A program made the translations under genes and the position numbers. From IMG/VR virus record IMGVR_UViG_3300031951_000028: a stretch of DNA of 64,000 nt. One strand, given 5' to 3'. The notes beneath the pieces were generated by a model. The model saw only the letters and a list, made by a program, of their open reading frames with translations. It did no database searches and was not told where the DNA came from. The DNA is from a virus. Shown here one piece after another: positions 3,139-36,549 of this stretch (positions are counted from its first letter, which is position 1; each line of letters begins with the position of its first letter).

Positions 3139-3160
3139 GATCTATATTACCTCTATATTA

Positions 3161-11950: not shown

Positions 11951-12030
11951 AAATTTAAATTATTAAAAATTGACTAAAAAAACCGCTTATATATTAATAT
12001 ACCACGCGCCAGCTATTTTTTATATTATTT

Positions 12031-12477
12031 TTATATTTTTTTCCTAAAATAATAACAAAAAGGTTGGAGGCCCCACTTTTCTTGTGGAATATACAGCTCG
12101 TAACCGCATCTGATCAGGTTATTGGCGCTAGCTATATTTTCTGGACTAACATAAGTTACAATTGTGTGGACATTTTGTAAGCGGGCAAACTTTTCTCTCG
12201 CTTTTATAAAGCGTTGTTGGAGGCCTTGACCTCTAAAATCTTTTTTAACTACTGATCTAGCAAGGAATGCCCAGCCTGGGATCCAAATACTTAAGCAGGT
12301 AGCGCCAACTAATTTATTATTGTCTGTATCGAATGCTCCCCACCAATATGCAGTACTTTTATTATTAATTTTTGAATAAGGCGCATCTAACGGTAATACT
12401 TCTAGTTCGAGCGCCAAAATGCTTTCAAGGTTCTTTTCGGAACGTGGAAGTTTTCGTATACTAATGTGAGTAGACAT
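12031..12477 (-). CDS. GNAT acetyltransferase
   Basis: V..DFRGQGL motif A; N.AS.NNL..CGY. Confidence 0.85.
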   Translation of the reverse strand: MSTHISIRKLPRSEKNLESILALELEVLPLDAPYSKINNKSTAYWWGAFDTDNNKLVGATCLSIWIPGWAFLARSVVKKDFRGQGLQQRFIKAREKFARLQNVHTIVTYVSPENIASANNLIRCGYELYIPQEKWGLQPFCYYFRKKI

Positions 12478-12657
12478 AAAAGAACTTCATAGTTAGTAAA
12501 AGTATATGATAGATATTATACACCGGGGGAAGGAAGATAGTATAATAGCGTTTGTTAGCCTTTACAACTCTATGAGTTTCTGTGAGTTTTCGCGCGCACC
12601 ACCCCCGCCTGCGGCACTATGTCGCACCCTACCGGGGGAGGGAATTAAAATGGGGTC

Positions 12658-12762
12658 GGCGGTCGGCGGTCGGCGGTCGGCGGTCGGCGGTCGGCGGTCG
12701 GCGGTCGGCGGTCGGCGGTCGGCGGTCGGCGGTCGGCGGTCGGCGGTCGGCGGTCGGCGGTC
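12658..12762. repeat. (GGCGGTC)x15 perfect heptamer tandem repeat
   Basis: 105 bp of exact 7-mer units at the AT-rich to GC-rich transition. Confidence 0.95.
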
Positions 12763-13052
12763 CAGTCTCATTTCCAAAGTGTCCAGTAAGTTTCTCAAAA
12801 CTTTTTTTCTCGCGTTTTTCCCGTAAAAAGTGGGCAAAACAAAATAAAATTTTTTTTCCTTTACTTTTGGCGGCCACAAACCGATATAATACTTCACCGG
12901 GACAGCAAACCGGCCACACGGGAAACGTGTGGTAAAGCTCTTTGAAAATCTGGCGAATAACTAACCGCGTGTAACGGTTACACGTGGTCACAATCCGGCG
13001 ACATATCGCCAGCCCGGATTGTAGACAATGGCGATAATTGGAGAGAATTATC

Positions 13053-13583
13053 ATGTCGAATAAGCAAACAACTCTGTCGAAAATCCGCGAAACCGCTGCT
13101 GATTATGCCGCTGATTTTGAGGCTTTCAAGCGGTTGATGGAAGCTCAAGCTGACTGCGTGAAAGGGTTGATAGGTGAAGACGATGGTCGTGCAAGGTGGC
13201 TGAAAATCCTTGAAAACGATTTCGACGTTGACCGATTTTCACGGATTGGGACGTTTTACAATGCTCTGTGCGGCGGGGAAGACTTCCCCGGCTGGGTTAA
13301 CTGTTATCTGGAGAAGGTGAACCCTGATTACAGGAAAGATTTCAAGGATATTATTCCTGAAGCCTTCAGCGAAGCCTTGAAGCTCTGGGTTACTGAACTT
13401 TGCAGGATTCTCCCGCAGGGAATGAAGCGGAAGAAGGATATCACAGGCAAAAAGCCCCCTCTTCCTGTGAAGTTCGGACAATATTTCAGTGCGGTGCTGA
13501 AAACCTGTGTCGAAGAATTTGGCTGGGCCGACTCAGAGGCAGCTTCTGGAGAACATATCGAAAGCGAAAAGTGGGATATCTAA
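13053..13583 (+). CDS. Hypothetical protein (GC-rich codon usage)
   Basis: GGAGAG Shine-Dalgarno before ATG 13053; terminator follows. Confidence 0.75.
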   Translation: MSNKQTTLSKIRETAADYAADFEAFKRLMEAQADCVKGLIGEDDGRARWLKILENDFDVDRFSRIGTFYNALCGGEDFPGWVNCYLEKVNPDYRKDFKDIIPEAFSEALKLWVTELCRILPQGMKRKKDITGKKPPLPVKFGQYFSAVLKTCVEEFGWADSEAASGEHIESEKWDI

Positions 13584-13602
13584 CCCACTTCGACAGCCAA
13601 CC

Positions 13603-13635
13603 AGCCCATCGGCTAACCAGCCGGTGGGCTTTTTT
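13603..13635 (+). terminator. Intrinsic terminator
   Basis: AGCCCATCGGCT-AACC-AGCCGGTGGGCT followed by TTTTT. Confidence 0.85.
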
Positions 13636-14115
13636 CGTGCCCCTCGCCCGGAGGGGCTTTCCTGGCCGCCCACAGCCGGCTGTCAGGCCCAACAAACGCT
13701 TCTAATTAGGCGGAGGCGACCTTGATGAAAGGTCTCCGCCCCGGCCGAGCGTAGCGAGGCCGCTCTTCGCTGGCGCGCGAAGCATATCGCCAGCGGTCGA
13801 GCGAAGCGAGTCCTTTCCTCTTAGTCCTAGCGCAGGCCCCTTGAGGGGCCGAGCACAGCGAAGCGGGGGGTAGGCGCAGCCCCCGAGGGGGCGAGTATGC
13901 GACCAATGTGAGCGGGGCCGCTGGCGCGCAAGCACATCGAAGCGATCGATAGATCGCGTAGATACGTGCTTGCACATCGCCAGCGCTACGCGTGAGCGAT
14001 AGCGAACACTAAGGAGATGAGCGGCAGCGAATCTCCCTAGGCCTCGTCAGAGGCCGCGTATCGCCGCGCGCGACGGCGCGCATAAGCGATACGTCTTCGC
14101 TGGCGCGGCGCGATA

Positions 14116-14155
14116 GCAAGCGGCATGCCAGGGCTTTGACTGGCATGACGTTTGC
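14116..14155. promoter_or_regulatory. Inverted pair of sigma54 -24/-12 motifs forming a hairpin (copy 1)
   Basis: Plus strand TGGCATGACGTTTGC; minus strand TGGCATGCCGCTTGCT; both GG-N10-GC. Confidence 0.55.
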
Positions 14156-14208
14156 CGCGCCATATAGCCAGCGCTTCCGAGGCTTTGCGAGGGCAGTTGA
14201 TACAAACC

Positions 14209-14469
14209 GCGCAGGCCCCTTGAGGGGCCGAGCACAGCGAAGCGGGGGGTAGGCGCAGCCCCCGAGGGGGCGAGCATGCGACTTTGGAGCGGGGGGCGCA
14301 GGCCCCTTGAGGGGCCGAGCACAGCGAAGCGGGGGGTAGGCGCAGCCCCCGAGGGGGCGAGCATGCGACTTTGGAGCGGGGGGCGCAGGCCCCTTGAGGG
14401 GCCGAGCACAGCGAAGCGGGGGGTAGGCGCAGCCCCCGAGGGGGCGAGCATGCGACTTTGGAGCGGGGG
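14209..14469. repeat. Three tandem 87-bp palindrome-containing repeats (fourth partial copy at 13830-13903)
   Basis: Units start at 14209, 14296, 14383; each has GGCCCCTTGAGGGGCC, GCGAAGC and GCCCCCGAGGGGGC. Confidence 0.95.
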
Positions 14470-14486
14470 GCTGGCGCGGCGCGATA

Positions 14487-14526
14487 GCAAGCGGCATGCC
14501 AGGGCTTTGACTGGCATGACGTTTGC
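14487..14526. promoter_or_regulatory. Inverted pair of sigma54 -24/-12 motifs forming a hairpin (copy 2)
   Basis: Identical to 14116-14155. Confidence 0.55.
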
Positions 14527-14592
14527 AGCGCCATATAGCCAGCTCGTGCGAGGTTTTGCGAGCTCAGTTTTGTTTTTTTAACGGCTAGAGAT

Positions 14593-14615
14593 AAAAAAAG
14601 GAGCCTTTCGGCTCC
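14593..14615 (-). terminator. Intrinsic terminator of the 15091-14621 gene
   Basis: Minus strand GGAGCC-GAAA-GGCTCC followed by T7. Confidence 0.8.
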
Positions 14616-14620
14616 ACGGA

Positions 14621-15091
14621 CTAGTTGAAGCAGCCGAAAGTTTCGACTAACTGCACCATCCAGCCGCTTTCCCCATAGGTTCCGATGCAGCTGATGGCGT
14701 CTTTGGTAAAGACCCATTTGCCGCCGAACTGGGCGTCAGTCCGAACTGCGATAAGGCAGCGGCGGACTGGGATGTTGTGGACGCGGAGTTCCGCGTTTAG
14801 GAACTTGTCTTTCCGCGTGATGCGAACAGCCACTGCGGCTCCGCTAGGGGCAAGAAGGGGTTGGGAGCCTGCATCAAAGGAGACCATTTGGTCAGGCTCC
14901 AGCATACAAAGCACCCTAGGAACGGCAGACGTCCACTCCTCGGCGTTTTCTTGGTCTGCAGGACCCTGACTGACGCGGAAGTCAGACTCTTTTAGGACAG
15001 TCCGGCCCGTAATCAGGGCGTCGGAGGGGATGAAGCACCCTGTTTCTTGGCGTTCCGCAGCTTCCGTAACTCTACCATTTTTCCGTTTCAT
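14621..15091 (-). CDS. Hypothetical 156-aa protein (intact arm of the inverted duplication)
   Basis: AGGAGAG SD before ATG 15091, open frame, terminator downstream. Confidence 0.55.
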   Translation of the reverse strand: MKRKNGRVTEAAERQETGCFIPSDALITGRTVLKESDFRVSQGPADQENAEEWTSAVPRVLCMLEPDQMVSFDAGSQPLLAPSGAAVAVRITRKDKFLNAELRVHNIPVRRCLIAVRTDAQFGGKWVFTKDAISCIGTYGESGWMVQLVETFGCFN

Positions 15092-15357
15092 AAGCTCTCT
15101 CCTAGCAAGTGGGTCGAGAAGTTCGACCCTTCGCGGAAAAGGCGGACGATAGAGTATGAACAATAAAAAAATGCGTGCGAGGCTTTGCGAGCACTCATCT
15201 AGACCGTTACAAGTGTAAGTGGAGAGCGGAAAAAAATGCAAAATTTAAAAAAATTTGAGCTTTGACAAATTTTTTTAGTTATCTAATCGCCACTGTGTAG
15301 TTAAATCGCAGCCTAATTTTGTATTTTTTTAGCTTGCGGCCGCTCGTAACGGGTAAG

Positions 15358-15930
15358 CCGCCTAGCGAGGGTCGAACTTCTCGACACACTTGCGACCAAA
15401 GGAGAGAGCGTAATGAAACGAGAAAAATGGCAGAGTTACGGAAGCTTGTATTGCGGAACGACAAGAAACGGGGTGATTCAGACCCGGAGACCAATGCGTT
15501 ACGGGACGGACTGTCTTAAAAGAGGATGGCTTTCGCGTCACAAAAGGGTCTGGCAGAGCAAGAAAGCGTCGAGGAGTGGGCGTTTGCCGTTTCTAGGGTG
15601 TTTTGTATGTTGGAGCCCGACCAAATGGTATCATTTGATACAGGGGCCCGACGCCTTATTGTCACTAGTGGAGACGTAGTGGTTGTTCGCGTCACGTGGA
15701 AAGGCGAGTTTTTAAACGCGGGACTACGTGTCCACAATATTCCAGTCTGCCGCTGTCTTATCGCTGTTCGGAGTGGCTCCTAGTTTGGCGGCGAATTGGT
15801 CTTTGCCGAAGACGTTATCAGTTGTATCGGAACCGCCGGGGAAAGCGGCTGGATGGTACAGTTAGTCGAAACTTTCGGCTGCTTCAACTAGTCCGTTGAG
15901 ACGAAAGGATCCTTATTTTAGCTCTGGCCG
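15358..15930 (+). pseudogene. Degenerate inverted copy of the 14582-15145 gene unit (fold-back arm)
   Basis: About 84% identity over the gap-free core, 5' frameshifts, in-frame TAG at 15781, broken terminator stem. Confidence 0.8.
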
Positions 15931-16028
15931 CTTCTTCGCTGGCGTGGTGCGGTAGCACCATATAGCCAGCGTGTGCGAGCTTTGCGAGCTCCATTTTAAT
16001 GTCACGGTTAAAGTTCGCATCTAAATGC

Positions 16029-22754: not shown

Positions 22755-23309
22755 GTGTGTAACCTTTGTAACAGATGTGAAAAACCAAAACAAAACTCAA
22801 AAATCAAAATCAACCATCGACCAATTTCTTACACTTTCAATTCTCCTTTTGACGAAGATACAACTTGCCACCACCTTTCACACGAAGATAGTGCAAATTT
22901 GTTAACTTACAGTCGCACAAATCCACCATCATCTGATGGTCTTCAACACTTTCAGGAAACTCCAATTTTACTGTCACTGGTGGATTATACAATCTCAAAG
23001 AAAGCTCATTATCTTGAATGTTCGTTTTCAACACTCCAATCTTACACGCCACTTCCAATATTGTTGCTGTCATTTTCTTTTTCCTTAAAACACTGACAAC
23101 CAATAAATTTATTTTTCTTTAATATTTCTTTTATTGTATTATCAGCTTCTTTAATTGTTTTTGCGACACACTCAAAAACTAATTTTTTATTTTCCCACCC
23201 GCCAGCATTATCATAATATTTAAATTTCATTTTTTTTCCTTTTTATTAAATCGCCCGACGATACACTACTTTTCATTTTTTTATTTTTATTTTTTTATTT
23301 TTTTATTTT

Positions 23310-23455
23310 TTCAGCGACCGCCAGAGGAACGGTGCGAGGCTTTGCGAGCACTCGTTCAGCCGGCAGCGGTCGCAATGGCCGGCCTAGCGACGACCCCCTG
23401 GATAGGGGGTCTAGCATTGGGGGTCGAGTCGAGACCGCAGACGAGGCTTTGCGAG
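23310..23455. repeat. ~140-bp structured element, copy 2
   Basis: Direct repeat of 16029-16170 with stem-preserving changes. Confidence 0.85.
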
Positions 23456-23584
23456 TCAAGGTCGAGACTTGCTTTTCCGCGTCGCATATTGATAAAAATA
23501 ATCTCAAAATAATACAGAAAATATATTAGAGGAAAAATTCCCGCCGTAAAGGCTGTTCAAGGGCTGTTAAAATTCCCTTAAGTC

Positions 23585-23600
23585 CGGCACGCTGTTTGCT
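23585..23600 (+). promoter_or_regulatory. Sigma54-type -24/-12 promoter
   Basis: CGGCACGCTGTTTGCT matches TGGCACG-N4-TTGCW, about 60 bp before the first plus-strand gene. Confidence 0.6.
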
Positions 23601-23662
23601 CTATAGTGGCCCGGCAAGTGCCGCATTTCCATTTTATAAATAAAAATAATAAATAAAATAAT

Positions 23663-24349
23663 ATGCAAAATAATAATTTTATTGTAGATAAAGTTCATGG
23701 TGAATTGTATAATAATATTTTATACTTTACCTTGGAAAAACGCGAAAGTTTAGAATATTTGTGGAATTTTCGTATCGAAAAGTCAAAGTTTAACAATAAT
23801 TTTGATAAATTTGCTAAGTTTTGCCGCGAAGTTACTAAAAAGACGGCCACGGAACTTAATAAGTACGTGGAAAATAAGGAAAAACTGCTCCCTATATTAG
23901 AATATAGTGGAAATAGCCCGCAAAAGTTAGAAATTCAGGCCAAACTTAATAAAATTATGCAAAATTTTGCTGAAATGGGCTTATTCCCATTAAAGCGTGT
24001 AGTTAAGTATAATCATATCCCGCTCAAGAAAAATATTACTGGATATGCTATCTTAGCTACTTCTACTTATAGTAATCAGTCTCATAATATTAATGCTGAG
24101 TATGAGCATCCGCGTGTTGCTATTGTAGAAGAAGAAAATAAAGAAGATAAAAAAGTTAGCTGGGAAATGGCCCCTCCCAAAAGAAAAGCCCCACGTAAGC
24201 GGCAATATACTAAAAGACGTGGGCCTTCTACTAATAATAAATATTTCACTATTGATACCCGCAGCTTAATTAAAGAAGATGAAGCTATGGGTATTGCTTA
24301 TAATGCAGAAAAGAATAATAGTATTAGTAAGTTGCTAGAGGATTTATAA
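23663..24349 (+). CDS. Hypothetical 228-aa protein heading the microprotein operon
   Basis: ORF track; its TAA overlaps the ATG of the first microprotein. Confidence 0.7.
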   Translation: MQNNNFIVDKVHGELYNNILYFTLEKRESLEYLWNFRIEKSKFNNNFDKFAKFCREVTKKTATELNKYVENKEKLLPILEYSGNSPQKLEIQAKLNKIMQNFAEMGLFPLKRVVKYNHIPLKKNITGYAILATSTYSNQSHNINAEYEHPRVAIVEEENKEDKKVSWEMAPPKRKAPRKRQYTKRRGPSTNNKYFTIDTRSLIKEDEAMGIAYNAEKNNSISKLLEDL

Positions 24350-24510
24350 TGGAATATAAAATTTCAGCCAGATTCTCAGATGCTAAAATGTTTATAATAT
24401 TAACGTGCAGCTCAGATAAATTAGTAGATGTAATTAGATTGAAAAGAAATCTTATATGTCGTTGGCTTATGAATAGTTTAATTATCAGAAAATATGAGAA
24501 TTTTAATTAA
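24349..24510 (+). CDS. Array microprotein MEYKISARFSDAKMFIILTCSSDKLVDVIRLKRNLICRW...
   Basis: Hand translation, 53 aa. Confidence 0.65.
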   Translation: MEYKISARFSDAKMFIILTCSSDKLVDVIRLKRNLICRWLMNSLIIRKYENFN

Positions 24511-24655
24511 ATACCGCAATTCCCGCATTTATTTATTTTTTAAAGATGAAAAAATGCGCAATATGGCATATACAAAACGTGGCATGATAAATTATCCCCA
24601 CCAAAGATTTTTCCTATTTACTCGCGGTGAATATGAGAGTATATGCACAAAATAA
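24494..24655 (+). CDS. Array microprotein MRILIKYRNSRIYLFFKDEKMRNMAYTKRGMINYP...
   Basis: Hand translation, 53 aa. Confidence 0.6.
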   Translation: MRILIKYRNSRIYLFFKDEKMRNMAYTKRGMINYPHQRFFLFTRGEYESICTK

Positions 24656-24792
24656 ATGTTAATTTTGACTCATGGGCGAATAGTTTTTGTCTGAAAACAG
24701 AAGATAAAATTATAATGGGTATGATAGTATTTAAAAGAATCATAATAATGCATCCACATATATCTAGTATTTATCTTTTAAAAACAATTTAA
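24643..24792 (+). CDS. Array microprotein MHKINVNFDSWANSFCLKTEDKIIMGMIVFKRIII...
   Basis: 49 aa; paralog of 26506. Confidence 0.65.
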   Translation: MHKINVNFDSWANSFCLKTEDKIIMGMIVFKRIIIMHPHISSIYLLKTI

Positions 24793-24793
24793 A

Positions 24794-24946
24794 ATGGATA
24801 AAATTCAAGTATATTATTCAGTAAGCCTAAAATGGTTTATATTGAAATATAGTTGCAAAAAAACCGCAGATGCTTTAAAAGATAGAATATATCTAATACA
24901 TATAGATACTCCAGTCTTATCAATGCGCCGCATACTTAAAGACTAA
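24794..24946 (+). CDS. Array microprotein MDKIQVYYSVSLKWFILKYSCKKTADALKDRIYLI...
   Basis: 50 aa. Confidence 0.6.
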   Translation: MDKIQVYYSVSLKWFILKYSCKKTADALKDRIYLIHIDTPVLSMRRILKD

Positions 24947-24949
24947 ATT

Positions 24950-25099
24950 ATGATTACAATAGTTCAAGACGAATCTACTCTAACGGCAATAAGCAAATAT
25001 AAATATATATCTTTAATCATGGGGATGAAGTTATTAATATTATCTAATACTGATAAGCTTATTGTTAAGGGCGGCGCTATTTTAGTTGAAATTGAATAA
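24950..25099 (+). CDS. Array microprotein MITIVQDESTLTAISKYKYISLIMGMKLLIL...
   Basis: 49 aa. Confidence 0.55.
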   Translation: MITIVQDESTLTAISKYKYISLIMGMKLLILSNTDKLIVKGGAILVEIE

Positions 25100-25101
25100 A
25101 T

Positions 25102-25251
25102 ATGTCAAATAAAATCATTGTTAGATACACCAGCAACCTTGATTTAATATCAATAATTTTCCCAGAAGATAAGATTTTTATGGTCGAAATATTACTAGAA
25201 AAACGGGCCGCAATTTCTCCTTTAGAAATAGCATTTTTAATTCAGACTTAA
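25102..25251 (+). CDS. Array microprotein MSNKIIVRYTSNLDLISIIFPEDKIFMVEILLEKRAAISP...
   Basis: 49 aa. Confidence 0.6.
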   Translation: MSNKIIVRYTSNLDLISIIFPEDKIFMVEILLEKRAAISPLEIAFLIQT

Positions 25252-25402
25252 AATAAATAGTCAAACTCAAACCACACTTTACGCCCGCCGAATTAAAGTA
25301 TGGCGTATGTATAAATATATACCTAGAAACAGTAGATTGGCATACTCTTGCAAGAAAAATTGCCACTATTGTAACATTTGATTATTATACTAGAATAATA
25401 AC

Positions 25403-25546
25403 ATGGCCAAGCCCATAAGAGTAAAATACTATCAATATACTTATCATTCTGATAGATATTTATATTTATCAATAAAAGATAAAGATATGTGGTTAAAAAT
25501 AAGGGCTAAAATAATTTGTATAAAGAATATCAGGTTTATAATATAA
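25403..25546 (+). CDS. Array microprotein MAKPIRVKYYQYTYHSDRYLYLSIKDKDMWLKIRAKIICI...
   Basis: 47 aa. Confidence 0.6.
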   Translation: MAKPIRVKYYQYTYHSDRYLYLSIKDKDMWLKIRAKIICIKNIRFII

Positions 25547-25585
25547 GTAAAAGGGACGCGGCCCGTAGATTTTTGACTGAATAAG

Positions 25586-25750
25586 ATGATTAATACTATA
25601 TATATAGATATAAACCCTCCAGGTATAGATTTACATATAAACAGTGAATCATTATTAAATACTATAACTCATAAAATACGTTGTCTTGGATATATGGAAA
25701 CTCCTCTTTATGTAAGATATCATGATAAACACTGTATATATAGACAATAA
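25586..25750 (+). CDS. Array microprotein, GID subfamily (MINTIYIDINPPGIDLHI...)
   Basis: 54 aa; clear paralog of 25722. Confidence 0.7.
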   Translation: MINTIYIDINPPGIDLHINSESLLNTITHKIRCLGYMETPLYVRYHDKHCIYRQ

Positions 25751-25940
25751 AGGTACAGGGATAGATATAGCCTGTACTGATAATACACTGGAGTTTGCAA
25801 ACAATATAAGGAAGAAATACCGTTTAATCCGAAATGGCCCGGTTATATCATTTAAAAATACACTCTATATTTTTTATTTTACTGAAGAAATGATGGAAAA
25901 AGCGCGGGAAAATGGCACTATTTATGAAAAACACGCGTAA
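25722..25940 (+). CDS. Array microprotein, GID subfamily (MINTVYIDNKGTGIDIAC...)
   Basis: ORF track, 72 aa. Confidence 0.7.
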   Translation: MINTVYIDNKGTGIDIACTDNTLEFANNIRKKYRLIRNGPVISFKNTLYIFYFTEEMMEKARENGTIYEKHA

Positions 25941-26335
25941 ATGAAGGGGATTTCGCGTTGATGAAGTTGGGCCCATAAATGATTATTATATACTTATCCC
26001 TATCCCCTCCCCCTCCCATAGGTTATTCTCCCCTTTATATATTCTATATATTGTATGGTATAATAGAGTATTATTCCCCTAGTAATATAATGATATATTC
26101 CCTGTGTTTTTGGGGGTAAAATGGGGAAATAGGTATTAGCTTTATGCAATATTTTAAAGTCGTTTTTCTCTATGGTATGGGCTATATTTTATACTGCCCG
26201 CACGACCAATATGCTATAAATTTACAGACAAAAAATTATTACGTATTTCCTAATCTATATTTAATTATATCAAAAGAGATATATAATAACACGATGAACA
26301 AAAGAATTATTTAACCAATTACCTATAATTCATTT

Positions 26336-26509
26336 ATGAAAATTAAAGTAAAAATAATCTACTTACTAAATCTTCGTTTTTGGACGCTTGATATCTACGG
26401 GCCGAGAAATTTTATAAAAAAAATGGAAGTAAAAAGGGGTTTGATGACTTCTTTTAATAAAACTTGTAGTATGTTAAATATTAATTTATTTTATTATAGA
26501 GATCAATGA
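26336..26509 (+). CDS. Array microprotein, GP subfamily (…LDIYGPRNFIKKMEVKRGLM…)
   Basis: 57 aa. Confidence 0.65.
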   Translation: MKIKVKIIYLLNLRFWTLDIYGPRNFIKKMEVKRGLMTSFNKTCSMLNINLFYYRDQ

Positions 26510-26667
26510 AAATAAAAGTTGAATTTGACTTACATGCAAATTGTTTTTGGCTCTCACCAAATAATAAATATGTATTGTCTATTATTATAGCTAAAAGATA
26601 TTTGATATGCAGCTGGAATACTCATGGGATTTTCCTTATGAATAAAAATTATGAATGCCAGATATAA
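26506..26667 (+). CDS. Array microprotein MKIKVEFDLHANCFWLSPNNKYVLSIIIAKRYLICSW...
   Basis: 53 aa; ATGA overlap. Confidence 0.65.
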   Translation: MKIKVEFDLHANCFWLSPNNKYVLSIIIAKRYLICSWNTHGIFLMNKNYECQI

Positions 26668-27370
26668 TAGAAAAATAAAAGCTTTTATAATAACTTTTAA
26701 TAAAAAGACCGGGGCGTATGCGAAAAACCTCTATCAGAAAAGGTTATTTCTTTATAAAACAGGAGCTGGTTTGAAAATATACGCAGAATATAAAAAATAA
26801 ATTATGAGAACAAGTAAAATATATGTAAGTTGGGATTATAATGTAAAATGTTATAGATTCGATGACCGTGATGGAGTATATATGTGGTTAATAGGGATGG
26901 TCAGGATTAAAAGAACATTCATTACCAAACACCATATCGGCCGCCACTCTTATCTTCATTTTCGCTAATGAATACAATACGGTTTAAATATTATAAAGCG
27001 CTCCGCTTATTCTTTTTTTACTTTCAAAACAAAAAACATGCAGAAAGTTTTAAAATAAAAAGTTATTTAATTGGTCGTTTTAAGATACACTCTCAATATG
27101 AAAATGATTTGGAATCTATATAATATTGACGCATCCTTCTGCGATTATGGTTGATTTTATTAGAAAGAAAAAGAATATGATAAACTGGTTTGTACGCTTG
27201 GGCGTATCGCAGAAACACAAACAAACATAATATGTTTTCAATAATTAATAATAAGTCAAGTTTAATCCTTATAACAATAGATAATTTAAAATATTATTAT
27301 ATAGTTTTAAATAAACTGACTGCAATGGTGGATAATTCTATTGTTCTAGAATATAGAAGCCCTAAGATAT

Positions 27371-27541
27371 ATGGCCGCAAGTAGTCAAACTCAAAACTCA
27401 CTTATCGCTTCCAGTATTAGAGTGTTGTGTTATGGCAAGTATTTATATTTAGAATCATTAGATTGGCTTAAAATTGATAATAAAATTGAATATATCAGGA
27501 AAAACAGAGGCGTAAGTAAAATAATGGCGTGGCCAAAATGA
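27371..27541 (+). CDS. Array microprotein (…YGKYLYLESLDWLKIDNKIEYI…MAWPK)
   Basis: 56 aa; paralog of the ATG-less frame at ~25257-25418. Confidence 0.6.
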   Translation: MAASSQTQNSLIASSIRVLCYGKYLYLESLDWLKIDNKIEYIRKNRGVSKIMAWPK

Positions 27542-27661
27542 TTAAAATAGACCGAGTTCATTATTATATACGTCTTAATATAACAGATAATAGATATATG
27601 TGTGGTTTATTATTTGCCCGCCTATTTTTGATTAAATATACTAAAATTCTAACAGAATCAT

Positions 27662-27850
27662 ATGATTGAACTAATAAATGTAAGAATTAGGCCGCGAAGA
27701 GGAATAGATTTATTGATATCTGTGGATTTTAAATGGTTTTATCAAAATATGAACAGTAAAATAATGTGTATTGAATATACTAAAACTGTTAATATATATC
27801 CATATTGGCCAATGTTCTCCGCGAGGCCATGCTCTCCGCGAGTCAAATAA
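27662..27850 (+). CDS. Array microprotein, GID subfamily
   Basis: RGIDLLI...NSKIMCI. Confidence 0.65.
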   Translation: MIELINVRIRPRRGIDLLISVDFKWFYQNMNSKIMCIEYTKTVNIYPYWPMFSARPCSPRVK

Positions 27851-28143
27851 AAGATAGACAAAATGTATATAAAAACTGATGGTGGTATAGGTATAGATAT
27901 ATATCTTAGTGAAGGGTGGACGAAAGTTACAGAGATGTTTTGGAAAAAGAAAAAACTTATCTATAGATTTACCTCAATATATTTTCATTCAAAAGATATA
28001 TGATTAAAGTAAAATTAGTAGATAGGCCTTATTCATTTATGATTCACTATATAGGGCCGCGAGATTCAATACGTCAAATATATTATAAAATAAATAAAAT
28101 CGGCTATTTTTCTAATTTATATTATAGTTGGTAGTGATATTAA

Positions 28144-28338
28144 ATGTATATTTCCTTTCCATCATCTGGTTATTATGTTCCTATAAATACTGGACATCTT
28201 AAATATATCGAACATCCAATATATTTTAATCTTATTTGGACCGATTCTGGCATGTATTATAAAAATATAATAGCCAAAAAAATAATACTTATTGCCCCAA
28301 GCCAAGATTGTAAGTTTATGAATTATTTTTATGAATAA
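28144..28338 (+). CDS. Array microprotein, GYY-HPI subfamily
   Basis: Paralog of 28719, 29061 and 29225. Confidence 0.7.
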   Translation: MYISFPSSGYYVPINTGHLKYIEHPIYFNLIWTDSGMYYKNIIAKKIILIAPSQDCKFMNYFYE

Positions 28339-28498
28339 TTTTCCACAAAAGTGTGTTAAAATAACAAAATCTATTTTACATGGTAGCTCTACAGAGGTCT
28401 TATTCATCGATGGGCCTAAGAATTTTATAAAAATGATAAAAAGAAAAGAAAATATGATATCTGATCTCCTGACCGGTCTAGAGTATCATGTCTATTAA
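28331..28498 (+). CDS. Array microprotein, KE.I(S)..GL.Y subfamily
   Basis: LFIDGPKNFIKMIKRKENMISDLLTGLEYH. Confidence 0.7.
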   Translation: MNNFPQKCVKITKSILHGSSTEVLFIDGPKNFIKMIKRKENMISDLLTGLEYHVY

Positions 28499-28570
28499 AA
28501 AAATTGAAGTAGAGAAAATGTATTTATAAATATGGATCTGTTATAAGTAAAACCACAATGATTGAAACCA

Positions 28571-28729
28571 ATGATTAGAATTACAAAAGAAAAGCTTTTA
28601 AGCTGGTCTAAAGAAATGTTATTTCTGGAAGCTTGTAATAAAAAAGGTGAGCAATTAGTAGAAATTATAGATAAAAAAGAAAATATAATTTCTATAAGAT
28701 TAAGTGGGTTAAATTATTATGTTAAATAA
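28571..28729 (+). CDS. Array microprotein, KE.I(S)..GL.Y subfamily
   Basis: EMLFLEA...DKKENIISIRLSGLNYY. Confidence 0.7.
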   Translation: MIRITKEKLLSWSKEMLFLEACNKKGEQLVEIIDKKENIISIRLSGLNYYVK

Positions 28730-28916
28730 AATGTTTATAAAATTTGGCTCCACATCTTATTATGTAACTCAAATAACTGGACCATATTATGTCTTAATAA
28801 GACATCCGATATGTATTTATTTTATAAAAGATGGTCAAACACACATGGCTAAACTTTTATTATTTTCAAAATTAAGAGCGATTCTTAAAAAAGACTCTAA
28901 GATTAGAATCTATTAA
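28719..28916 (+). CDS. Array microprotein, GYY-HPI subfamily
   Basis: ORF track. Confidence 0.7.
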   Translation: MLNKMFIKFGSTSYYVTQITGPYYVLIRHPICIYFIKDGQTHMAKLLLFSKLRAILKKDSKIRIY

Positions 28917-29224
28917 TATGTATTATTTTAAAATAGATTTTTGTAAAATGTGGTGCGAATGTGCACGGCCAATATTTTATATTAAAAATTATCAAAGTAG
29001 ATGCAACTTAGTTGCAAAATTATCTTATATAAAAATAAATATAGATATATGTGATATAAAATGCGAGTAATATATTATTCACCTGGCGTATATTATTTTG
29101 GTGATAGATGGCAATATCTACAATATCCACTAGTAATTAATACTAATGATTATTACAGTTATTATTTATTTGTAAAACTGACAAAAATTGCATATTTTAA
29201 ATCTAAAATCTTAATAAAAACTTT

Positions 29225-29407
29225 ATGAAAATATCTTTTATTCATACTGGATATTATCTTGCAATATTTAATTGGGGCTATATAAATTATCCAATACGTA
29301 TTTTAATTAGAAAAACTAATTCAGTTGATATATATGCTATATCAAAAATGAGAGAGATTATGCGTTCTGACTGTAAAATTATTATTACTTATGAAGTAGA
29401 TGATTAA
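29225..29407 (+). CDS. Array microprotein, GYY-HPI subfamily
   Basis: ORF track. Confidence 0.7.
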   Translation: MKISFIHTGYYLAIFNWGYINYPIRILIRKTNSVDIYAISKMREIMRSDCKIIITYEVDD

Positions 29408-29564
29408 AGTAACAAGAAGACTAGTATATGGGTTTTCAAGCAATAGAGAAACTTTATTTCTTGATGGTCCCCGTGAGTTAATGAACATCTTACTAAAAAA
29501 AGAAAAGATAATATCTCAGCGCTATAGTGGATTGGATTATTATACTTATTATGGTAGTAAATAA
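29400..29564 (+). CDS. Array microprotein, KE.I(S)..GL.Y subfamily
   Basis: ETLFLDGPRELMNILLKKEKIISQRYSGLDYY. Confidence 0.7.
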   Translation: MIKVTRRLVYGFSSNRETLFLDGPRELMNILLKKEKIISQRYSGLDYYTYYGSK

Positions 29565-30115
29565 TATAAACATATAGTGGCTAAAATGAAAATATTAATC
29601 AAAAATGAATATTATATAATACTTCTTTATTTTAAAAATGATGTTAATAGAAATCAGTGTAATATATGTTCAGTAAAATTTACAAACATATGTAATTTAT
29701 GGCCTCCTAAAGTGTTTGCCTGTTAATGATGTATAAAATCACAGTGGATAATATACAGACTAAAAAAGTCTTAATATATTCAAGCAGCCAAAAAATAGCT
29801 TTTGATGTTTGCAAGGTTAAATTGAATTATATCTGGCCTTGGGCAAAGCGTTTATATTTAATTAGAGATTTGAAGTGTAATGAGTTGATTTAGTAAAACC
29901 CAAATCTCACTTATCAGAACCACAATGATACAATGTATAAGGATTAACACCAACCATTATAATTTTTTATATGGGAGAATGTGCGGTGTTTATTGTTATG
30001 ATTATCAAATATACTATTTATTTAGAGATAAAATGCTAACTATTATACCTCATAAAGTCCATTATCATTATGATGTTTATGATAGATTTTATCTTTTTTT
30101 AGTGAATTAAGTTCT

Positions 30116-30328
30116 ATGTATATCAAAAATTCTTTATTTAAGATACATGGTAAAAGTCTTGTGGTTAAAAGACTATTTCCTACTGATGAAAATAAAATAT
30201 CAGTTTTTATAGAATCTACCGCTTTCTTATTTGGGAATAGTAGAATTGTCGAAGCTGAAATGTTTAATACTAAACTTCAATTAATGACTTGGTTAGGTAT
30301 TGATTTATTTATAGCCGAGGATAAGTAA
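30116..30328 (+). CDS. Array microprotein (P.D.NKI.V pair)
   Basis: Paralog of 30328. Confidence 0.65.
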   Translation: MYIKNSLFKIHGKSLVVKRLFPTDENKISVFIESTAFLFGNSRIVEAEMFNTKLQLMTWLGIDLFIAEDK

Positions 30329-30540
30329 TGTATGTTGTTAAGTTGTCTACTAAGACTAATAAATTTCTAGAACATATTTATCCAGAAGATAAAAATAAAA
30401 TAGGTGTGTCTACTAATCATTTGAATAAGGTATCTATATATTTTGGCGAGAATGTATTAAAAATAGGTGAGTCATTAATTGCAAAAGACGCATTTATACT
30501 AAATTATCCATTTAGAATCTTCATCTATCTAAATAGATAG
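30328..30540 (+). CDS. Array microprotein (P.D.NKI.V pair)
   Basis: Paralog of 30116; TAATG overlap. Confidence 0.65.
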   Translation: MYVVKLSTKTNKFLEHIYPEDKNKIGVSTNHLNKVSIYFGENVLKIGESLIAKDAFILNYPFRIFIYLNR

Positions 30541-30716
30541 TATTTTATGTTTAAAGAAAAACAAATATCTATAAAGATAGATGGCAAAGATATAATTTTA
30601 AATATAACTCTATATTCTTATAGAGAATATTCCAGTTCGCCCGCCAATATTATACGCACAAAAATTATAGCGGTCCACCCATCAACTAAAATCTTTAGTT
30701 TTCTAATCTATTCTAA

Positions 30717-30929
30717 TTGAAATGTATGAATTTAATCAAAGATAAAATTACTGTCAGATTAATAAAACCTAATATGAGTAGTTGGACTGTTGGTTTATTT
30801 ACTGACAATAGACAAACTCTTATAAAAAAAGTTCTTATGATTGTAGATTATGATGGCTATCAAGCACATAGTATTTTAGTTGAAACAAAAAAATGGCTTA
30901 ATAATTATGAGAACTGGTCTAAATTATAG
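30717..30929 (+). CDS. Array microprotein
   Basis: Paralog of 31304 (G.F..N...L..K...D.Y...IL.E.K.W). Confidence 0.65.
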   Translation: MKCMNLIKDKITVRLIKPNMSSWTVGLFTDNRQTLIKKVLMIVDYDGYQAHSILVETKKWLNNYENWSKL

Positions 30930-31303
30930 TAATAATTTAAAGCTTACCGTTATAATTCGATATTATGAAACACCAAAATTAACGTACATATGGATACATT
31001 CTAATACTTATTTTACAAATGACGCGTTAATACAAAAATTATACTACCTTGGAAGAGCAATGAGAAGGTTAAATTGTGCGCTGAAGCTGAAGGAGCTGAA
31101 TTAATGATTGAAGTATTTTTCGATTACGGAATGATATGTTTCACTTATAAATCAGGTATTGGTTTACCTTTTTTGTGGCCAAAATTGCTAAAAATAGATA
31201 TGAAATTTTTTAACCCTCATAGTAGAATTTTATTACGTAATGATCTTCAAGTTAGTTATAAGAATATTCAACGATTTGGTCTATCAAATTTTAGGTGAAA
31301 TAA

Positions 31304-31504
31304 ATGGATAAAATATTTGTTGAAATAAGGGAGATACCATATCTCAGGAATCTTCCTTCATCTATAGGCATCTTTTCTAAAAATCATGAACCTTTATTAG
31401 ATAAACTTATAAACGTTATTGGTATAGACGCATATCATAAGTGTAATATCTTAATCGAATCTAAAAACTGGTTCGAATATCAAAGACAATCATATGAAAA
31501 TTAG
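31304..31504 (+). CDS. Array microprotein
   Basis: Paralog of 30717. Confidence 0.65.
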   Translation: MDKIFVEIREIPYLRNLPSSIGIFSKNHEPLLDKLINVIGIDAYHKCNILIESKNWFEYQRQSYEN

Positions 31505-31708
31505 AGTGCAATCTACTCCATGCAGAATTAAGTTCTTATCACGTAAAAGAGGTAGATCTTTTCAAAAATGTAAAGTAGCATTTGTATTTTATTTTCCTCT
31601 TTTAGATAAGCCTTTTTTTAAAAGCGTTTTTAAACACTTTCCTAAAAAATTGCGTATACTCGATACTTCTCGACTTGATATAACTGAAACTTATAAATAT
31701 TTATAATA

Positions 31709-31846
31709 ATGATAAAAGTTGTGTTTATGCCAAAATACAGGATTTTTGATTTAATTTGCAGTGACCAAGCACTTTTTAATATGTGCGTGAATAAAGCAGG
31801 CTTAATACATTTTGATCTTGAGCGTCTCTTCTTTGTATATATCTAA
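31709..31846 (+). CDS. Array microprotein MIKVVFMPKYRIFDLICSDQALFNMCVNKAGLIH...
   Basis: 45 aa; resembles 35740. Confidence 0.6.
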   Translation: MIKVVFMPKYRIFDLICSDQALFNMCVNKAGLIHFDLERLFFVYI

Positions 31847-33616
31847 TGAATATAAAAATAACATTTAACAAAATAGATAAAGCATTAAATATATTAGTCA
31901 AAAGAAACCATAAATTATATAAATCTCTTATTAATAAGAAGCGCACCATCTTTAAAAAAGGGTTATGTATTCTTATTCATTATAAAGAAATTTAATTTTG
32001 AGACTTAAAAATTAATATGTTTAAAATTACAGCATATTGCTTTGAAAACGAATATTTTATATGTATTATATCTTCACAACCTTGTCCTTTATTAGAAAAG
32101 TTAATATTAATTAATCAATACATAGGTAATATTTATATCTATGATGGAACGTGGCTAGAAGAATGTCACATATAATTCTGGGTAAAATAATGACCTCAAA
32201 GTGGTATATCTTATTTAAAACAAAAGTCGAAATCAATTTTTTTATCCATATTTACATAGCTAGGAAAAAACATTTTCTAGCTTTAGAGAAAAAACTGAAT
32301 ATAATTAATGTAGGCAGAGATGATATTTATCACTGTGTCTATGGAAAATTCTGGCTTGTAGATACACGACAATGATTAAAGTAATACCTTCTACTGATCT
32401 TGATTATACTATAATACTTATAGATGAAGAATTTCTATCATATTATTTAGTATTAGAGAAAATGAATAAAATAAGTTATCTTTATCCTGGTGTTTGTATA
32501 ATGACTGAATCTCTATATTTAGATAGCCTTTAGTCTTGCTCAAAGTGAGTAGTCTAAACCATGACTCCGTATTTTAATATGGACAAATATAATAATACGG
32601 TATTCAAATGATAATCCATACATGTAGTATCCTCGACAATCGTATTTTTAATAGAAAATATCTAATTTTCTGTAAAGATAGAAAATTTTATGAAGCTTTA
32701 TCTGGAAAATGTTATCTTATTATTAAAAAATATTCGTTCAAAAATTTCGCAATAATTTTACAATCTTAAAAAAATAAAGATTGCTATATTGGTGATAAAA
32801 TTAGAATCATTGATTTATATTATAGATAATAATGTATATTACATATAGACAAGAATATCTTAGAAGACGTATAGAAATATATGTTAGTGTAGATTTTATT
32901 ACAAAAAAAAGTTTTCATATAAATGAATATAATATGTTATGGGAAAAATATCACACTATTCTACAATCGCCGGACAATGCGACATTAATCATAAGATGAA
33001 AGTATATTTATATTCTTTTAATGAAATATTTAAGCATCCTACTGGTTTTTTTATTTATACTGGCTCATATTTTAAAATATGCGTAGCAAAAATACAAACT
33101 ATAGATAAGAAATCAATAGTTTTACAATCCGCAAATAAAGATAATCATATATGCTGTAAGTGTTGCGGGGTTATGTACTGGAGTCTTTTCTGCGATGCGA
33201 AAGATTTTAATTCAACAAAGTATTAATGAGACTGGATTTTGTTTAGTTACTAATGATAATATTATATATCAAAAACTTAATTTAATTAAAAAAACTACAG
33301 GTATTGAAATCGATAAATATTATTGTAATAAACCATTGAAATGCGTTGGAAATAATAAATATAGCACTCCAATTTTGGTATATATTTATGATTTTTAGAC
33401 CAACTTTTAAAGTCAGAAATAGAAGATATTCATTTTATATTGTAAAATTTGATGCAGATAAATTAATAGATATTTTCAACTGCGACGGTGATTTATTTTA
33501 CAGATTAAATCTGATAAATATCAATAAACGCTATTTTGTGACTGGCAAGTATTATTTTTTAGGTAGAATATGTTTTCACAATTATTGTAAAAAAGCAATA
33601 TATTGGTGCGGATTTA

Positions 33617-33961
33617 ATGAATATAAATTTAGAAAATAAATTAATTAAAAAAATAGAATGTATACATCCAAAATACGTTGAATTTTTTAAGACGGTGAAT
33701 ACACTGGCTAAATCTTACCGTAAATTAATTATCGGTGAGACGTACTTAGTATTTTTTATGTTTTTAGTAATTATATTTCTAATATGTGTAATGATTTCTA
33801 TTATAGATAATCCAGAACAACCTATAGTTTCTGTTTTTATGGCAATATGTAGTATGGGTGCGCAGTTCGGTGTTAGTTGTGAAAAGCTTCTTGATTCTCA
33901 TGATAGATACGAATTCTATAATAATCAAAGAATGCGACCTTTTAAAGATTTTTTACGATGA
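33617..33961 (+). CDS. Membrane protein (two hydrophobic helices)
   Basis: LVFFMFLVIIFLICVMISII hydrophobic stretch. Confidence 0.6.
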   Translation: MNINLENKLIKKIECIHPKYVEFFKTVNTLAKSYRKLIIGETYLVFFMFLVIIFLICVMISIIDNPEQPIVSVFMAICSMGAQFGVSCEKLLDSHDRYEFYNNQRMRPFKDFLR

Positions 33962-34096
33962 TATTTAGATATAAAATAGAAAACAGTTTTGTTCCTGGCT
34001 GTCCATTTATAATAATTTGCGATATTAATACATATAATATTTTGCATCGTAAAGTACATCTAATAACTAAAACTATATTAAACCAATATAGTATTA

Positions 34097-34618
34097 TTGA
34101 TTATGCTAAAAAATCTGTGTGGATGTAAAACTTGTGTATGCACTACTGGCGGCTATCAAGTTCATATTACAATTGAAAATCTTAACGCAAAAGTATCAGC
34201 TTTTATTAATGAAAATGGCGGAGAGATAATTAAATTAAAAAATTATACAAATGACAGTTTTTATGAAGAAAATATAACTTCAAAGAACTATAATAAGTAT
34301 GAAGATGCTTATGAAGAAATGTATAAGTGGGATGAAATTATAAAAAGCTTGGGTAGTTCTGTTACTAGACTTAAAATTGAGTCACACCCAAAAGAAGCAT
34401 CTCAGTCACTCTATTACGAATATCATTATAAAATCTCAAGACAAGAAACTGAGCAGTATAAAAAACTTGGATGTTTTATTTCTGAAAATAGTAAAGGGAC
34501 TATATTTGCTACTAAGAGAAGTAAAGAACCAGTGAATCCTATTAAGCCTGAACATAGATTAGAAAAAGTTTGTATTGATTCAAATCCTGGTTTAGATAAA
34601 AGAATGATGTCTAAATAG
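34097..34618 (+). CDS. Hypothetical protein
   Basis: ORF track; start uncertain. Confidence 0.6.
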   Translation: MIMLKNLCGCKTCVCTTGGYQVHITIENLNAKVSAFINENGGEIIKLKNYTNDSFYEENITSKNYNKYEDAYEEMYKWDEIIKSLGSSVTRLKIESHPKEASQSLYYEYHYKISRQETEQYKKLGCFISENSKGTIFATKRSKEPVNPIKPEHRLEKVCIDSNPGLDKRMMSK

Positions 34619-34811
34619 ACTTATTTATGAAAAAATCTTTTTTAATAAAAAAAGGCATAGCAAATTATTATTATATATGTATTGAATGTTATAATACTCA
34701 ATATATAACATTAAGACAAAAACTAAATAAAATTAGTCCTTGTGTATGCAGAGGGCGTTATTGTTTTGAGAATAATTTTAGTTTAAGTCTTATAGCGCTA
34801 TATCAAAAATT

Positions 34812-35354
34812 ATGAAAATTACAAAACTTCCTAAAACATGCCATCTTGCCTTAAGTGGCGGAATTGATTCTATGTTTGGTTTGGTTTTTTTAATGAGCGG
34901 GCCGCCTAGAATTGAATCATGTATCCATATTAATCATGGAACTGAAAGAGCTAATGAATATGAAGATTTTTGCTCTAATATTTGTAATTATTATGGTATC
35001 AGACTTGATGTACATCACTATGATAAAAATAAACCAATGACTGAGGATGCTTGGCATTCTTTTAGATATGATATTTTCTCTTCCTATCCTAAAAAAGTAA
35101 TTGTTTGCCATCATAAAGATGATAATCTTGAAAACAAATTACTGTTTGGTAAGATTATGAAGCCCGAAAATGGTAATATTGTAAGACCTTTTTTGCAAGT
35201 TACTAAAGCAGAAATTAGAAATAGAATGGCTGGTTATGCGTATATTGAAGACCCGACCAATCTTGATGAAAATTTTACTAAAAGAAATAAAGTAAGACGA
35301 ATTATTCAAGAGTTAAAAGATATTGGTTGTGCATTAGATAGTTTACTACAATGA
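34812..35354 (+). CDS. tilS: tRNA(Ile)-lysidine synthetase (minimal, PP-loop domain only)
   Basis: ALSGGIDS, HINHG, HHKDDNLE, IVRPFL, EDPTN, RNKVR. Confidence 0.9.
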   Translation: MKITKLPKTCHLALSGGIDSMFGLVFLMSGPPRIESCIHINHGTERANEYEDFCSNICNYYGIRLDVHHYDKNKPMTEDAWHSFRYDIFSSYPKKVIVCHHKDDNLENKLLFGKIMKPENGNIVRPFLQVTKAEIRNRMAGYAYIEDPTNLDENFTKRNKVRRIIQELKDIGCALDSLLQ

Positions 35355-35739
35355 TAACAGTTCTTCCACAAAAAAATTCAAGTTTTTGTATGTTATTACA
35401 AATTAATTTTACACAATCTGAAGAAATAACAGATGAAGATAGATTAAAAATATTTTTGAAAAAAAGTATTAATGAGAAAATTGCCAATATAGAAACAATA
35501 AACTGGCCTTTACCAATAGTTGTACAATCATAGATGGAGATTAAATGTATACTGCACAAATTCTTTTGTTAATTTTGTTTATTTGTCGCTCGTTTTTAAC
35601 TATTGTTAATACTGCAAAAAATAACAGGAAATCAAATCTTTCAATGGGAGAGGATTTATTCGCATCAGTGATTGCTATAGGTGTTATTTATGCTTTATTG
35701 TATTATGCTGGTTCATTTAGTTTGATTTTTAAAAATTAA

Positions 35740-35880
35740 ATGATTGAGATTAGATTACCATACATAAGCGCTCGCAATATTGATTTATATTGTAAAGACT
35801 CAAGTGTATTTAATATTATATTTGATAAAATTGATCTAATTAATAAATATTATGTGACCTCAAAAATTCAAGTTTATTGA
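35740..35880 (+). CDS. Last array-type microprotein MIEIRLPYISARNIDLYCKDSSVFNIIFDKIDLINK...
   Basis: 46 aa. Confidence 0.6.
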   Translation: MIEIRLPYISARNIDLYCKDSSVFNIIFDKIDLINKYYVTSKIQVY

Positions 35881-35944: not shown

Positions 35945-36018
35945 CCGCCATTAGCTCAATCGGTTAGAGCAGGAAACTCATAATTTCAAGGTTCCAAGTT
36001 CGAGTCTTGGATGGCGGA
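35945..36018 (+). tRNA. tRNA(CAU), probably Ile2
   Basis: CCGCCAT/ATGGCGG acceptor, same D arm as 19545-19618, CT-CAT-AA loop; close to tilS. Confidence 0.85.
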
Positions 36019-36024
36019 CTATTT

Positions 36025-36096
36025 GCTCCCATAGCTCAAGGGATAGAGCAATGGATTTCTAATCCATCGATATAGGTTCGAATCCTATTGGGAGTA
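36025..36096 (+). tRNA. tRNA-Arg(UCU)
   Basis: GCTCCCA acceptor, ATGGA-TT-TCT-AA-TCCAT, GGTTCGAATCC. Confidence 0.92.
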
Positions 36097-36549
36097 TTTT
36101 TCTTTTTTTAGGAGATATTTATGAAAAAATCTTATCAAGAGTATTTAAAAGCATTAAACAAATCAATTCCATATGAACATCTGAGGGCTGGTCAACATGC
36201 AATGAACTTATTATATTCTCACAACTTAGAATTGTACGAAAAGATATTGGGTTCTAATATAGACCCATTTTATCTTAATAATAGACTTGGTTCTTTTTTC
36301 TCTCATTTAGAGGAGCATTGGGATGATTAGATTAGTAACTTTTAATCCTGGAAAACCTAGGACTACTAATGCAGATTTATCTGTTAGTAAAGGTGTTCCG
36401 TTTAAATGGATTTATGTAGATGAAAATACTGGTAAAACTTATAGCAGAAAAGAAGTTAAAAGAATTGCCAAAAAGACGAAAATGAAAATTGCCGGACTGT
36501 ATAACCCTTCTAGTTTTCTTAATTAATTATTTTTTGAGGTTTTGTTACT

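Follow-up and report, generated by a model that had tools for sequence, protein, structure and literature searches.

Large phages of the T4 type carry hyperplastic regions, in which small ORFan genes are shuffled between relatives by means of promoter-plus-stem-loop (PeSL) cassettes (Arbiol et al. 2010, PMC2839356; Comeau et al. 2014, PMC4122927). Here we describe a locus that resembles such regions in a 64,000-nucleotide stretch of viral DNA, IMG/VR record IMGVR_UViG_3300031951_000028 (the window). Between positions 24349 and 35880 (~11.5 kb), the window carries an array of about 55 coupled micro-genes, and we hold with high confidence that these genes are genuine, evolve fast and turn over by birth and death. 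Large phages are known to have a hyperplastic early region rich in ORFans, and the array is an extreme form of it. A prior sequence-only reading had stated that it knew of no described phage system with this many same-fold paralogs in one operon. Narrow literature searches turned up no account of a phage operon comprising so many related micro-genes; the statement was nevertheless too strong, as ORFan-rich hyperplastic regions with cassette shuffling have been described in the two articles above.

The likeness to the T4-type regions lies in genes that are small, mostly ORFan and presumably non-essential, and in close relatives that differ by insertion, deletion or replacement of whole genes. 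Variation of this type was seen here: a relative with 95% nucleotide identity (L005) and another (L013) carry extra or replaced micro-genes. The array differs, however, in that about 55 genes stand in one uninterrupted run, with much paralogy among them. PeSL cassettes are lacking in the array, where we counted 7 terminator-like sites against 4.3 ± 2 expected and 110 promoter-like sites against 105 ± 10 expected, and there is no room for them because 39 of the 56 junctions overlap or leave at most 6 nucleotides (nt). The sole repeated intergenic element has three copies and a different sequence.

Curation of the array gave 57 plus-strand micro-open reading frames (ORFs) of 43-83 amino acids (aa), plus one ORF of 114 aa; two ordinary genes are embedded among them, one of 173 aa whose family was not recognised and one encoding a 180-aa PP-loop ATPase. 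The density of ORFs is far from that of comparable sequence: 59 plus-strand ORFs that begin with ATG and reach 40 aa or more occupy 93.6% of the array bases, compared with 4.8 ± 2.2 and 7.6 ± 2.5 ORFs and a coverage of 6-10% in first- and second-order Markov shuffles, and 9 ORFs with a coverage of 12% on the minus strand. Stop triplets are if anything commoner on the plus strand, thus stops are being excluded from the reading frames. Half of the junctions (28 of 56) are overlaps, including seven of the ATGA type and five of a single base, a further 11 leave gaps of 0-6 nt, and the reading frame switches at almost all of them. The dense plus-strand micro-ORFs and the ATGA or short-overlap coupling announced by the sequence-only reading were thus confirmed, the former in a composition-matched check, and 53 of its 54 listed starts match an ORF with a start codon; the exception, near 25257, is an open frame without ATG, GTG or TTG. 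Micro-ORFs at 25979, 32832, 33617 (114 aa, membrane) and 35545 (64 aa, membrane) were added to the earlier list, and the start at 30717 is a TTG, alternative to an ATG at 30726. The ~150-bp period reported for the first genes reflects equal gene lengths and not a DNA repeat: Tandem Repeats Finder detected none of that period. We rejected an alternative genetic code in which recoded stops would join the frames into long genes: frames change at nearly every junction, reading through TGA or TAG barely extends the longest frames, and reading through TAA extends some, none beyond 212 codons. The G+C content of the array is 25-29%, compared with 30-34% downstream. The micro-proteins have a median isoelectric point of 9.4, a mean net charge of +4.1 (vs +0.1 for other proteins) and 8.2% Tyr, and several are acidic.

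The phage is essentially clonal. Among copies on ENA and JGI metagenome contigs (L001-L004), identity is 99.99-100%: three match at 100% and the fourth has one mismatch. The identical DNA is present in several metagenomes, its contigs reaching about 149 kb, and the phage occurs in runs from 14 studies, mostly freshwater and some labelled fungus metagenome. Contigs from four runs with partial copies (80% likeness) represent the same phage at low depth and held no informative variants. More distant relatives were L005 (~95% DNA identity), L007 (PP-loop homolog 62% identical) and L010-L014 (homologs of the 228-aa gene that precedes the array, 58-95% identical). Micro-genes lie directly 3' of the 228-aa gene in every relative found, and micro-genes likewise stand on either side of the PP-loop homologs with 56-77% identity.

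Gene content varies gene by gene between these genomes (micro-genes are named here by their start positions). In L005, an extra 51-aa gene stands between the orthologs of 29225 and 29400; its ATG lies within the last part of the gene before it, and it overlaps the next gene by ATGA. The same genome has three genes in place of 29586, and two of these are paralogs of the adjacent window pair 28719/28918, so a two-gene unit was duplicated. L013, whose flanking gene is 95% identical, has a new gene immediately after the 228-aa anchor, and L007 carries orthologs of 30726-32999 downstream of its PP-loop gene, not upstream. L010, L012 and L014 show few recognisable window orthologs; gene size, AT-richness and a K-L-x-x-I helix motif are kept. 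All together, these comparisons show that the array evolves by birth and death, through local duplication and exact exchange of cassettes at gene boundaries. We also examined a diversity-generating retroelement as a source of variation and rejected it: the repeats included no template/variable pair, and the window ORFs scanned included no reverse transcriptase. Beside the array start of L010 (anchor gene 62% identical), a leftward block at 2972-6242 contains three HNH endonuclease genes, which are possible drivers of local rearrangement.

Are the micro-genes translated into proteins that matter? The micro-ORFs stay open in all relatives examined (L005, L007, L010-L014), and full-length orthologs in L005, L007 and L011-L013 have 41-97% aa identity. 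In L005, an in-frame deletion of 6 nt and a compensated +1/-1 pair preserve the frame. The ratio of nonsynonymous to synonymous substitution rates (dN/dS) of the micro-genes was 0.37-0.78 in diverged pairs and 0.58 when pooled against L007, compared with 0.12-0.26 for the 228-aa flanking gene and 0.21 for the PP-loop gene; it is thus below 1 but 2-5 times that of the neighbouring genes. When micro-genes and flanking gene were compared in one genome pair at a time, dN was 0.092 vs 0.027 (L013), 0.49-0.69 vs 0.095 (L011) and 0.28-0.44 vs 0.114 (L012), and at nonsynonymous sites the micro-genes evolve 3-6 times faster than the 228-aa gene. Open frames in relatives, frame-keeping indels and a dN/dS below 1 together show that the micro-genes are coding, constrained and fast-evolving.

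We next consider whether the micro-proteins form one family. Paralogy is evident: 13 BLAST pairs reach at least 24 bits, compared with 0.2 in shuffles. Clustering that included the relatives' proteins, with thresholds calibrated on shuffles, placed 21-25 window members with another window member in ~9-10 small groups, namely a group of four (26336, 28331, 28571, 29400), a group of five (28144, 28719, 29061, 29225, 32372) and seven or eight pairs. A plain leave-one-out profile scored 30 of 55 members above the 99th percentile of decoys. With BLAST neighbours removed and the training set realigned, 17 of 55 exceeded the 99th and 27 of 55 the 95th decoy percentile, 10 of them scoring above every decoy. 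N-terminal or internal fragments of 77 other window proteins scored at most 6 bits. The alignment of 38 members begins with an M-x-K-I/V first strand. The second strand is hydrophobic and often closes with D, N or G-P; after it come a helix whose Lys is conserved in at least 90% of rows and precedes x-x-[LIM]-I, and an aromatic C-terminal strand. The shared motifs announced by the sequence-only reading are real: K..[LIMV]I occurs at residues 24-40 in 17 of 57 members, compared with 3.8 ± 1.8 in shuffles (maximum 10, n = 1000) and 2 of the 77 other window proteins, and M-x-[KR]-[IV] starts are found in 11 of 57 (1.6 expected). An alternating hydrophobic pattern of the beta type over the first ~11 residues is also specific to the set (z down to -4.8). 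HHalign comparisons between shallow subfamily profiles gave a modest excess, 22 real pairs against 10 reversed-control pairs above the control 95th percentile; the best links joined 24643/26506 with 24349/29726, 25586/25722 with 31709/35740, and 30116 with 30328.

AlphaFold modelled 26506, from the 38-row alignment, as two strands (4-8, 13-17), a helix (21-34) and a third strand (42-45), with a predicted local distance difference test score (pLDDT) of 72.9. The model of 29225, from its five-row group, has four strands, a helix (33-46) and a last strand (52-56) at pLDDT 73.5, the other four models being much lower. In both, a small sheet is packed on one helix; they are not identical, as 29225 has two extra strands, and their lists of weak PDB matches share about 12 of 50 entries. 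Roughly half of the members share an N-terminal beta-hairpin, a helix in which a nearly invariant Lys is followed by [LIM]-I, and a C-terminal aromatic strand. A single scaffold is plausible for perhaps 35-40 members and proven for fewer, and it is wrong for at least the membrane proteins 33617 and 35545 and the Pro-rich hydrophobic 25979. The single beta-beta-alpha scaffold of the sequence-only reading thus survives in part: paralogy, the profile shared by about half of the set and the strand-strand-helix-strand model of 26506 speak for it, but its extension to all ~55 members is weakened by the singletons, the modest HHalign excess, the two extra strands in the 29225 model and at least three membrane or hydrophobic members.

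Outside this phage clade, the searches yielded no relative. When 38 members were scanned against Pfam and PHROGs, no PHROG matched and the one Pfam match was at chance level (E 0.005). Subfamily A, the group of four, searched against 5.8 billion proteins, retrieved only this phage and near-identical variants. The 38-member profile, searched against 1.84 billion representatives, retrieved six proteins of 46-72 aa, of which one is a known close variant (P0004) and the other five look like the array's own members or close relatives. At near-identity, the DNA of the array matched none of 50,697 phage records, and IMG/VR scans with the PP-loop and 228-aa proteins gave no relative. Foldseek searches of the 26506 and 29225 models against PDB and BFVD returned nothing at E <= 0.001, and the best scores of a wide VIA-align comparison of two models (Z 3.9 and 4.3) were below the meaningful level. 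Some of the top weak matches of the 29225 model are de novo designed mini-binders, a resemblance to be read as analogy only. ESM Atlas contains the 29400 protein without a model or usable neighbour. The strand-strand-helix order also suggested a GIY-YIG or beta-beta-alpha-metal nuclease core, an idea that is unsupported rather than excluded: Pfam gave no match, no His/Tyr/Arg/Glu set is conserved and no such fold is among the listed matches.

As to function, our tentative preference, an even chance at best, is that the micro-proteins are directed at the host. They would be accessory proteins, expressed early and dispensable one by one; each, as a small stoichiometric partner, would bind or inhibit a host component or host defence, and an arms race would keep the repertoire diverse. 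Several observations count against this proposal or against a common family behind it. That expression is early is deduced from position only, the array is not enriched in sigma70-like promoter matches (110 vs 105 ± 10 expected), and none of the sequencing runs listed is an RNA run containing the array. A Shine-Dalgarno-like site precedes 16% of micro-genes, compared with 45% of larger genes and 7% of random positions, hence translation would rely on coupling or on unstructured AT-rich leaders. The pooled dN/dS against L005 is 0.92, which is indistinguishable from neutrality and includes 41 substitutions only. Strict BLAST clustering leaves 21-25 members single, about 20 members show no link to the others, model confidence is moderate, and no solved or viral fold was matched. 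Some of these points would be expected if the peptides were irrelevant, the open frames serving as ribosome cover of a long early transcript (protection from Rho or RNase, or timing) or as a nursery of near-neutral new genes. The near-neutral closest comparison, the few ribosome-binding sites with tight coupling and the very fast turnover of content fit that idea; it is nonetheless very improbable given a dN/dS of 0.37-0.62 in most more-diverged pairs, members that remain 80-90% identical where the PP-loop enzyme is only 62-63% identical, and a position-specific conserved motif and hydrophobic pattern. It is also improbable, if a little less so, that the proteins bind nucleic acids or are interchangeable subunits of homo- or hetero-oligomers, for example a DNA or RNA coat. 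Their mean charge and Tyr content and the nearly invariant helix Lys would suit such a role, and edge strands in the models could extend a sheet between subunits; but several members are acidic, the Pfam, PHROGs and Foldseek searches found no known nucleic-acid-binding fold or family that matches the micro-proteins, and single members are gained or lost between near-identical strains, which argues against obligatory subunits.

Two further readings concern how uniform the repertoire is. The array could be an ordinary hyperplastic region, a heterogeneous collection of unrelated tiny ORFans with a few recent duplicates and diverse functions, in which the profile reflects convergence from AT-rich codon usage (Ile, Lys, Asn, Tyr, Phe) and the folding needs of 50-residue proteins. 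Strict BLAST groups of only 2-5 members next to 21-25 singletons, the 22 against 10 HHalign pairs, lenient iterative hidden Markov models that recruit decoys too and the different strand number of the two models are all consistent with this. Yet shuffles of the same composition and other window proteins give neither the profile nor the positional Lys motif, the N-terminal beta-strand signal is specific to the set (z down to -4.8), and the same architecture recurs in non-orthologous members of relatives, so that we regard a purely heterogeneous collection as rather unlikely. At the other extreme, the array might be a natural library of mini-binders, in which one ~50-residue alpha/beta scaffold provides more than 35 specificities per phage and hundreds across the clade, each neutralising a different host defence or factor; tandem duplication, exchange of cassettes and fast evolution of surfaces would have diversified the scaffold. 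This strong form is doubtful; if true, it would give phages an equivalent of the multigene families that large eukaryotic viruses carry.

Other known systems resemble the array in what they may do. Host-takeover modules such as SPO1 gp37-gp60, the T5 pre-early genes and T7 class I genes comprise about 10-24 unrelated genes acting on host machinery. Like the array, they are runs of small genes, positioned early at the head of a transcription block; in contrast, their genes are not diverged copies of each other, and early expression is only inferred here. The multigene families (MGF) 110, 360 and 505 of African swine fever virus (ASFV) and the gene accordions of poxviruses are tandem paralog arrays with host-interaction roles, whose copy number and content vary between isolates. 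They share with the array tandem paralogs in a variable genome region, but they belong to eukaryotic viruses, encode larger proteins and have no sequence relationship to it. Anti-CRISPR (Acr) and anti-defence clusters, as well as phage small proteins in general (review PMC11323111), also comprise small, fast-evolving, homolog-less proteins that are grouped together, with content varying among related phages; such loci contain a handful of unrelated genes, not dozens of paralogs, and no known Acr or anti-defence family and no associated helix-turn-helix regulator was detected at the array. We take host-takeover modules, anti-defence clusters and viral multigene families as functional analogies only.

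In the genome of this uncultured, AT-rich freshwater phage, represented by contigs of up to ~149 kb, the rightward gene block starts with the array. Minus-strand genes extend to ~23100 and are followed by a divergent intergenic region, just past which the array heads the plus-strand genes that run from 23663 onward (Table 1). Downstream, the plus strand encodes NAMPT, PRPP synthetase, CobS/CobT-like proteins, a clamp loader and an RNA ligase; tRNA genes are scattered among these. The RNA-ligase similarity was uninformative for host identity, and the 64-kb window contains no T4 core structural genes.

Table 1. Coordinates of the micro-gene array, its members and the features that adjoin it.
Feature	Position	Strand	Remarks
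228-aa gene, no known family	23663..24349	+	No Pfam/PHROG match; conserved anchor
Core array, 53 contiguous micro-ORFs (43-83 aa, plus 114-aa membrane protein 33617-33961)	24349..34128	+	Mostly coupled by overlapping stop/start
Start-less open frame of 49 codons, gap the size of one gene	25252..25402	+	Similar to 27371 gene
Subfamily A member (D-G-P turn, K-[KR]-E-x-[IM]-I-S helix)	26336..26509	+	BLAST up to 45 bits
Other subfamily A members	28331-28498, 28571-28729, 29400-29564	+	BLAST and alignment
Representative of the 38-member alignment	26506..26667	+	Strands 4-8, 13-17, helix 21-34, strand 42-45 (model)
Block with subfamily D (28144-28338, 28719-28916, 29061-29228, 29225-29407)	28144..29407	+	Subfamily A genes and gene 28918 interleaved
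Gene 32372	32372-32533	+	Clusters with subfamily D
25-nt element starting TAGTCAAACTCAAA	25258..25282, 27382-27406, 29891-29915	+	Three copies
173-aa gene inside the array, no known family	34097..34618	+	No Pfam/PHROG match
Micro-gene, 62 aa, Cys-rich	34627..34815	+	Relative present in L012
PP-loop ATPase, 180 aa, TilS/MesJ-type N-terminal domain only	34812..35354	+	PF01171, E 9.5e-24
Last three micro-genes: 35351-35533, 35545-35739 (membrane), 35740-35880 (strong family member)	35351..35880	+	
tRNA(CAT) and tRNA-Arg(TCT), closing the array	35945..36097	+	

The divergent region is AT-rich, but shortly before the 228-aa gene it contains a G+C-rich non-coding stretch (23310-23560) with a predicted folding energy of -115 kcal/mol (z -2.1 vs shuffles). 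It may be a leader or regulatory RNA; Rfam gave no match for the surrounding 23100-23750. Elsewhere, positions 12000-16000 form an island of 50-56% G+C, the rest of the window being at 25-44%. ATA codons are used at 73 per 1000 in micro-genes, compared with 30 per 1000 in larger genes, and the PP-loop ATPase and tRNA(CAT) at the end of the array may be the phage's own module for decoding AUA through a lysidine tRNA-Ile2. In a distant phage from a stromatolite metagenome (L008, 6328-9018), a PP-loop homolog (34% identity) lies between a Mom-like gene and a Lar-like anti-restriction gene, a context which hints that the PP-loop protein belongs to a DNA-modification or anti-restriction neighbourhood.

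The array also contains a short repeated element. The 25-nt sequence beginning TAGTCAAACTCAAA has three matches in the whole window (0.22 expected), all on the plus strand and inside the array only, about 2.1-2.5 kb apart; it is conserved in L005, and in two of the copies the gene before the element ends on the element's own TAG. Possible roles are those of a phage-specific promoter, of a site for processing or of one for recombination. A direct repeat (D3) joins 25255-25306 with 27379-27430, and the same ~50-nt element precedes both the start-less frame in the gap 25252-25402 and the 27371 gene. The frame in the gap has family-like sequence and is probably a decaying copy related to the 27371 gene; the alternative to a pseudogene is a frame with a non-canonical start.

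About 8% of a ~149-kb phage genome is thus devoted to tiny proteins that databases do not recognise, and the occurrence of the phage, near-unchanged, in freshwater metagenomes of 14 studies indicates that it is common. Standard gene callers missed roughly a quarter of the micro-genes on the one long contig checked, hence such repertoires are under-counted. Should its products be diversified binders of host proteins, the array would be a compact source of new inhibitors of bacterial defences or core machinery, and a model of gene invention in phages through duplication and the exchange of cassettes.

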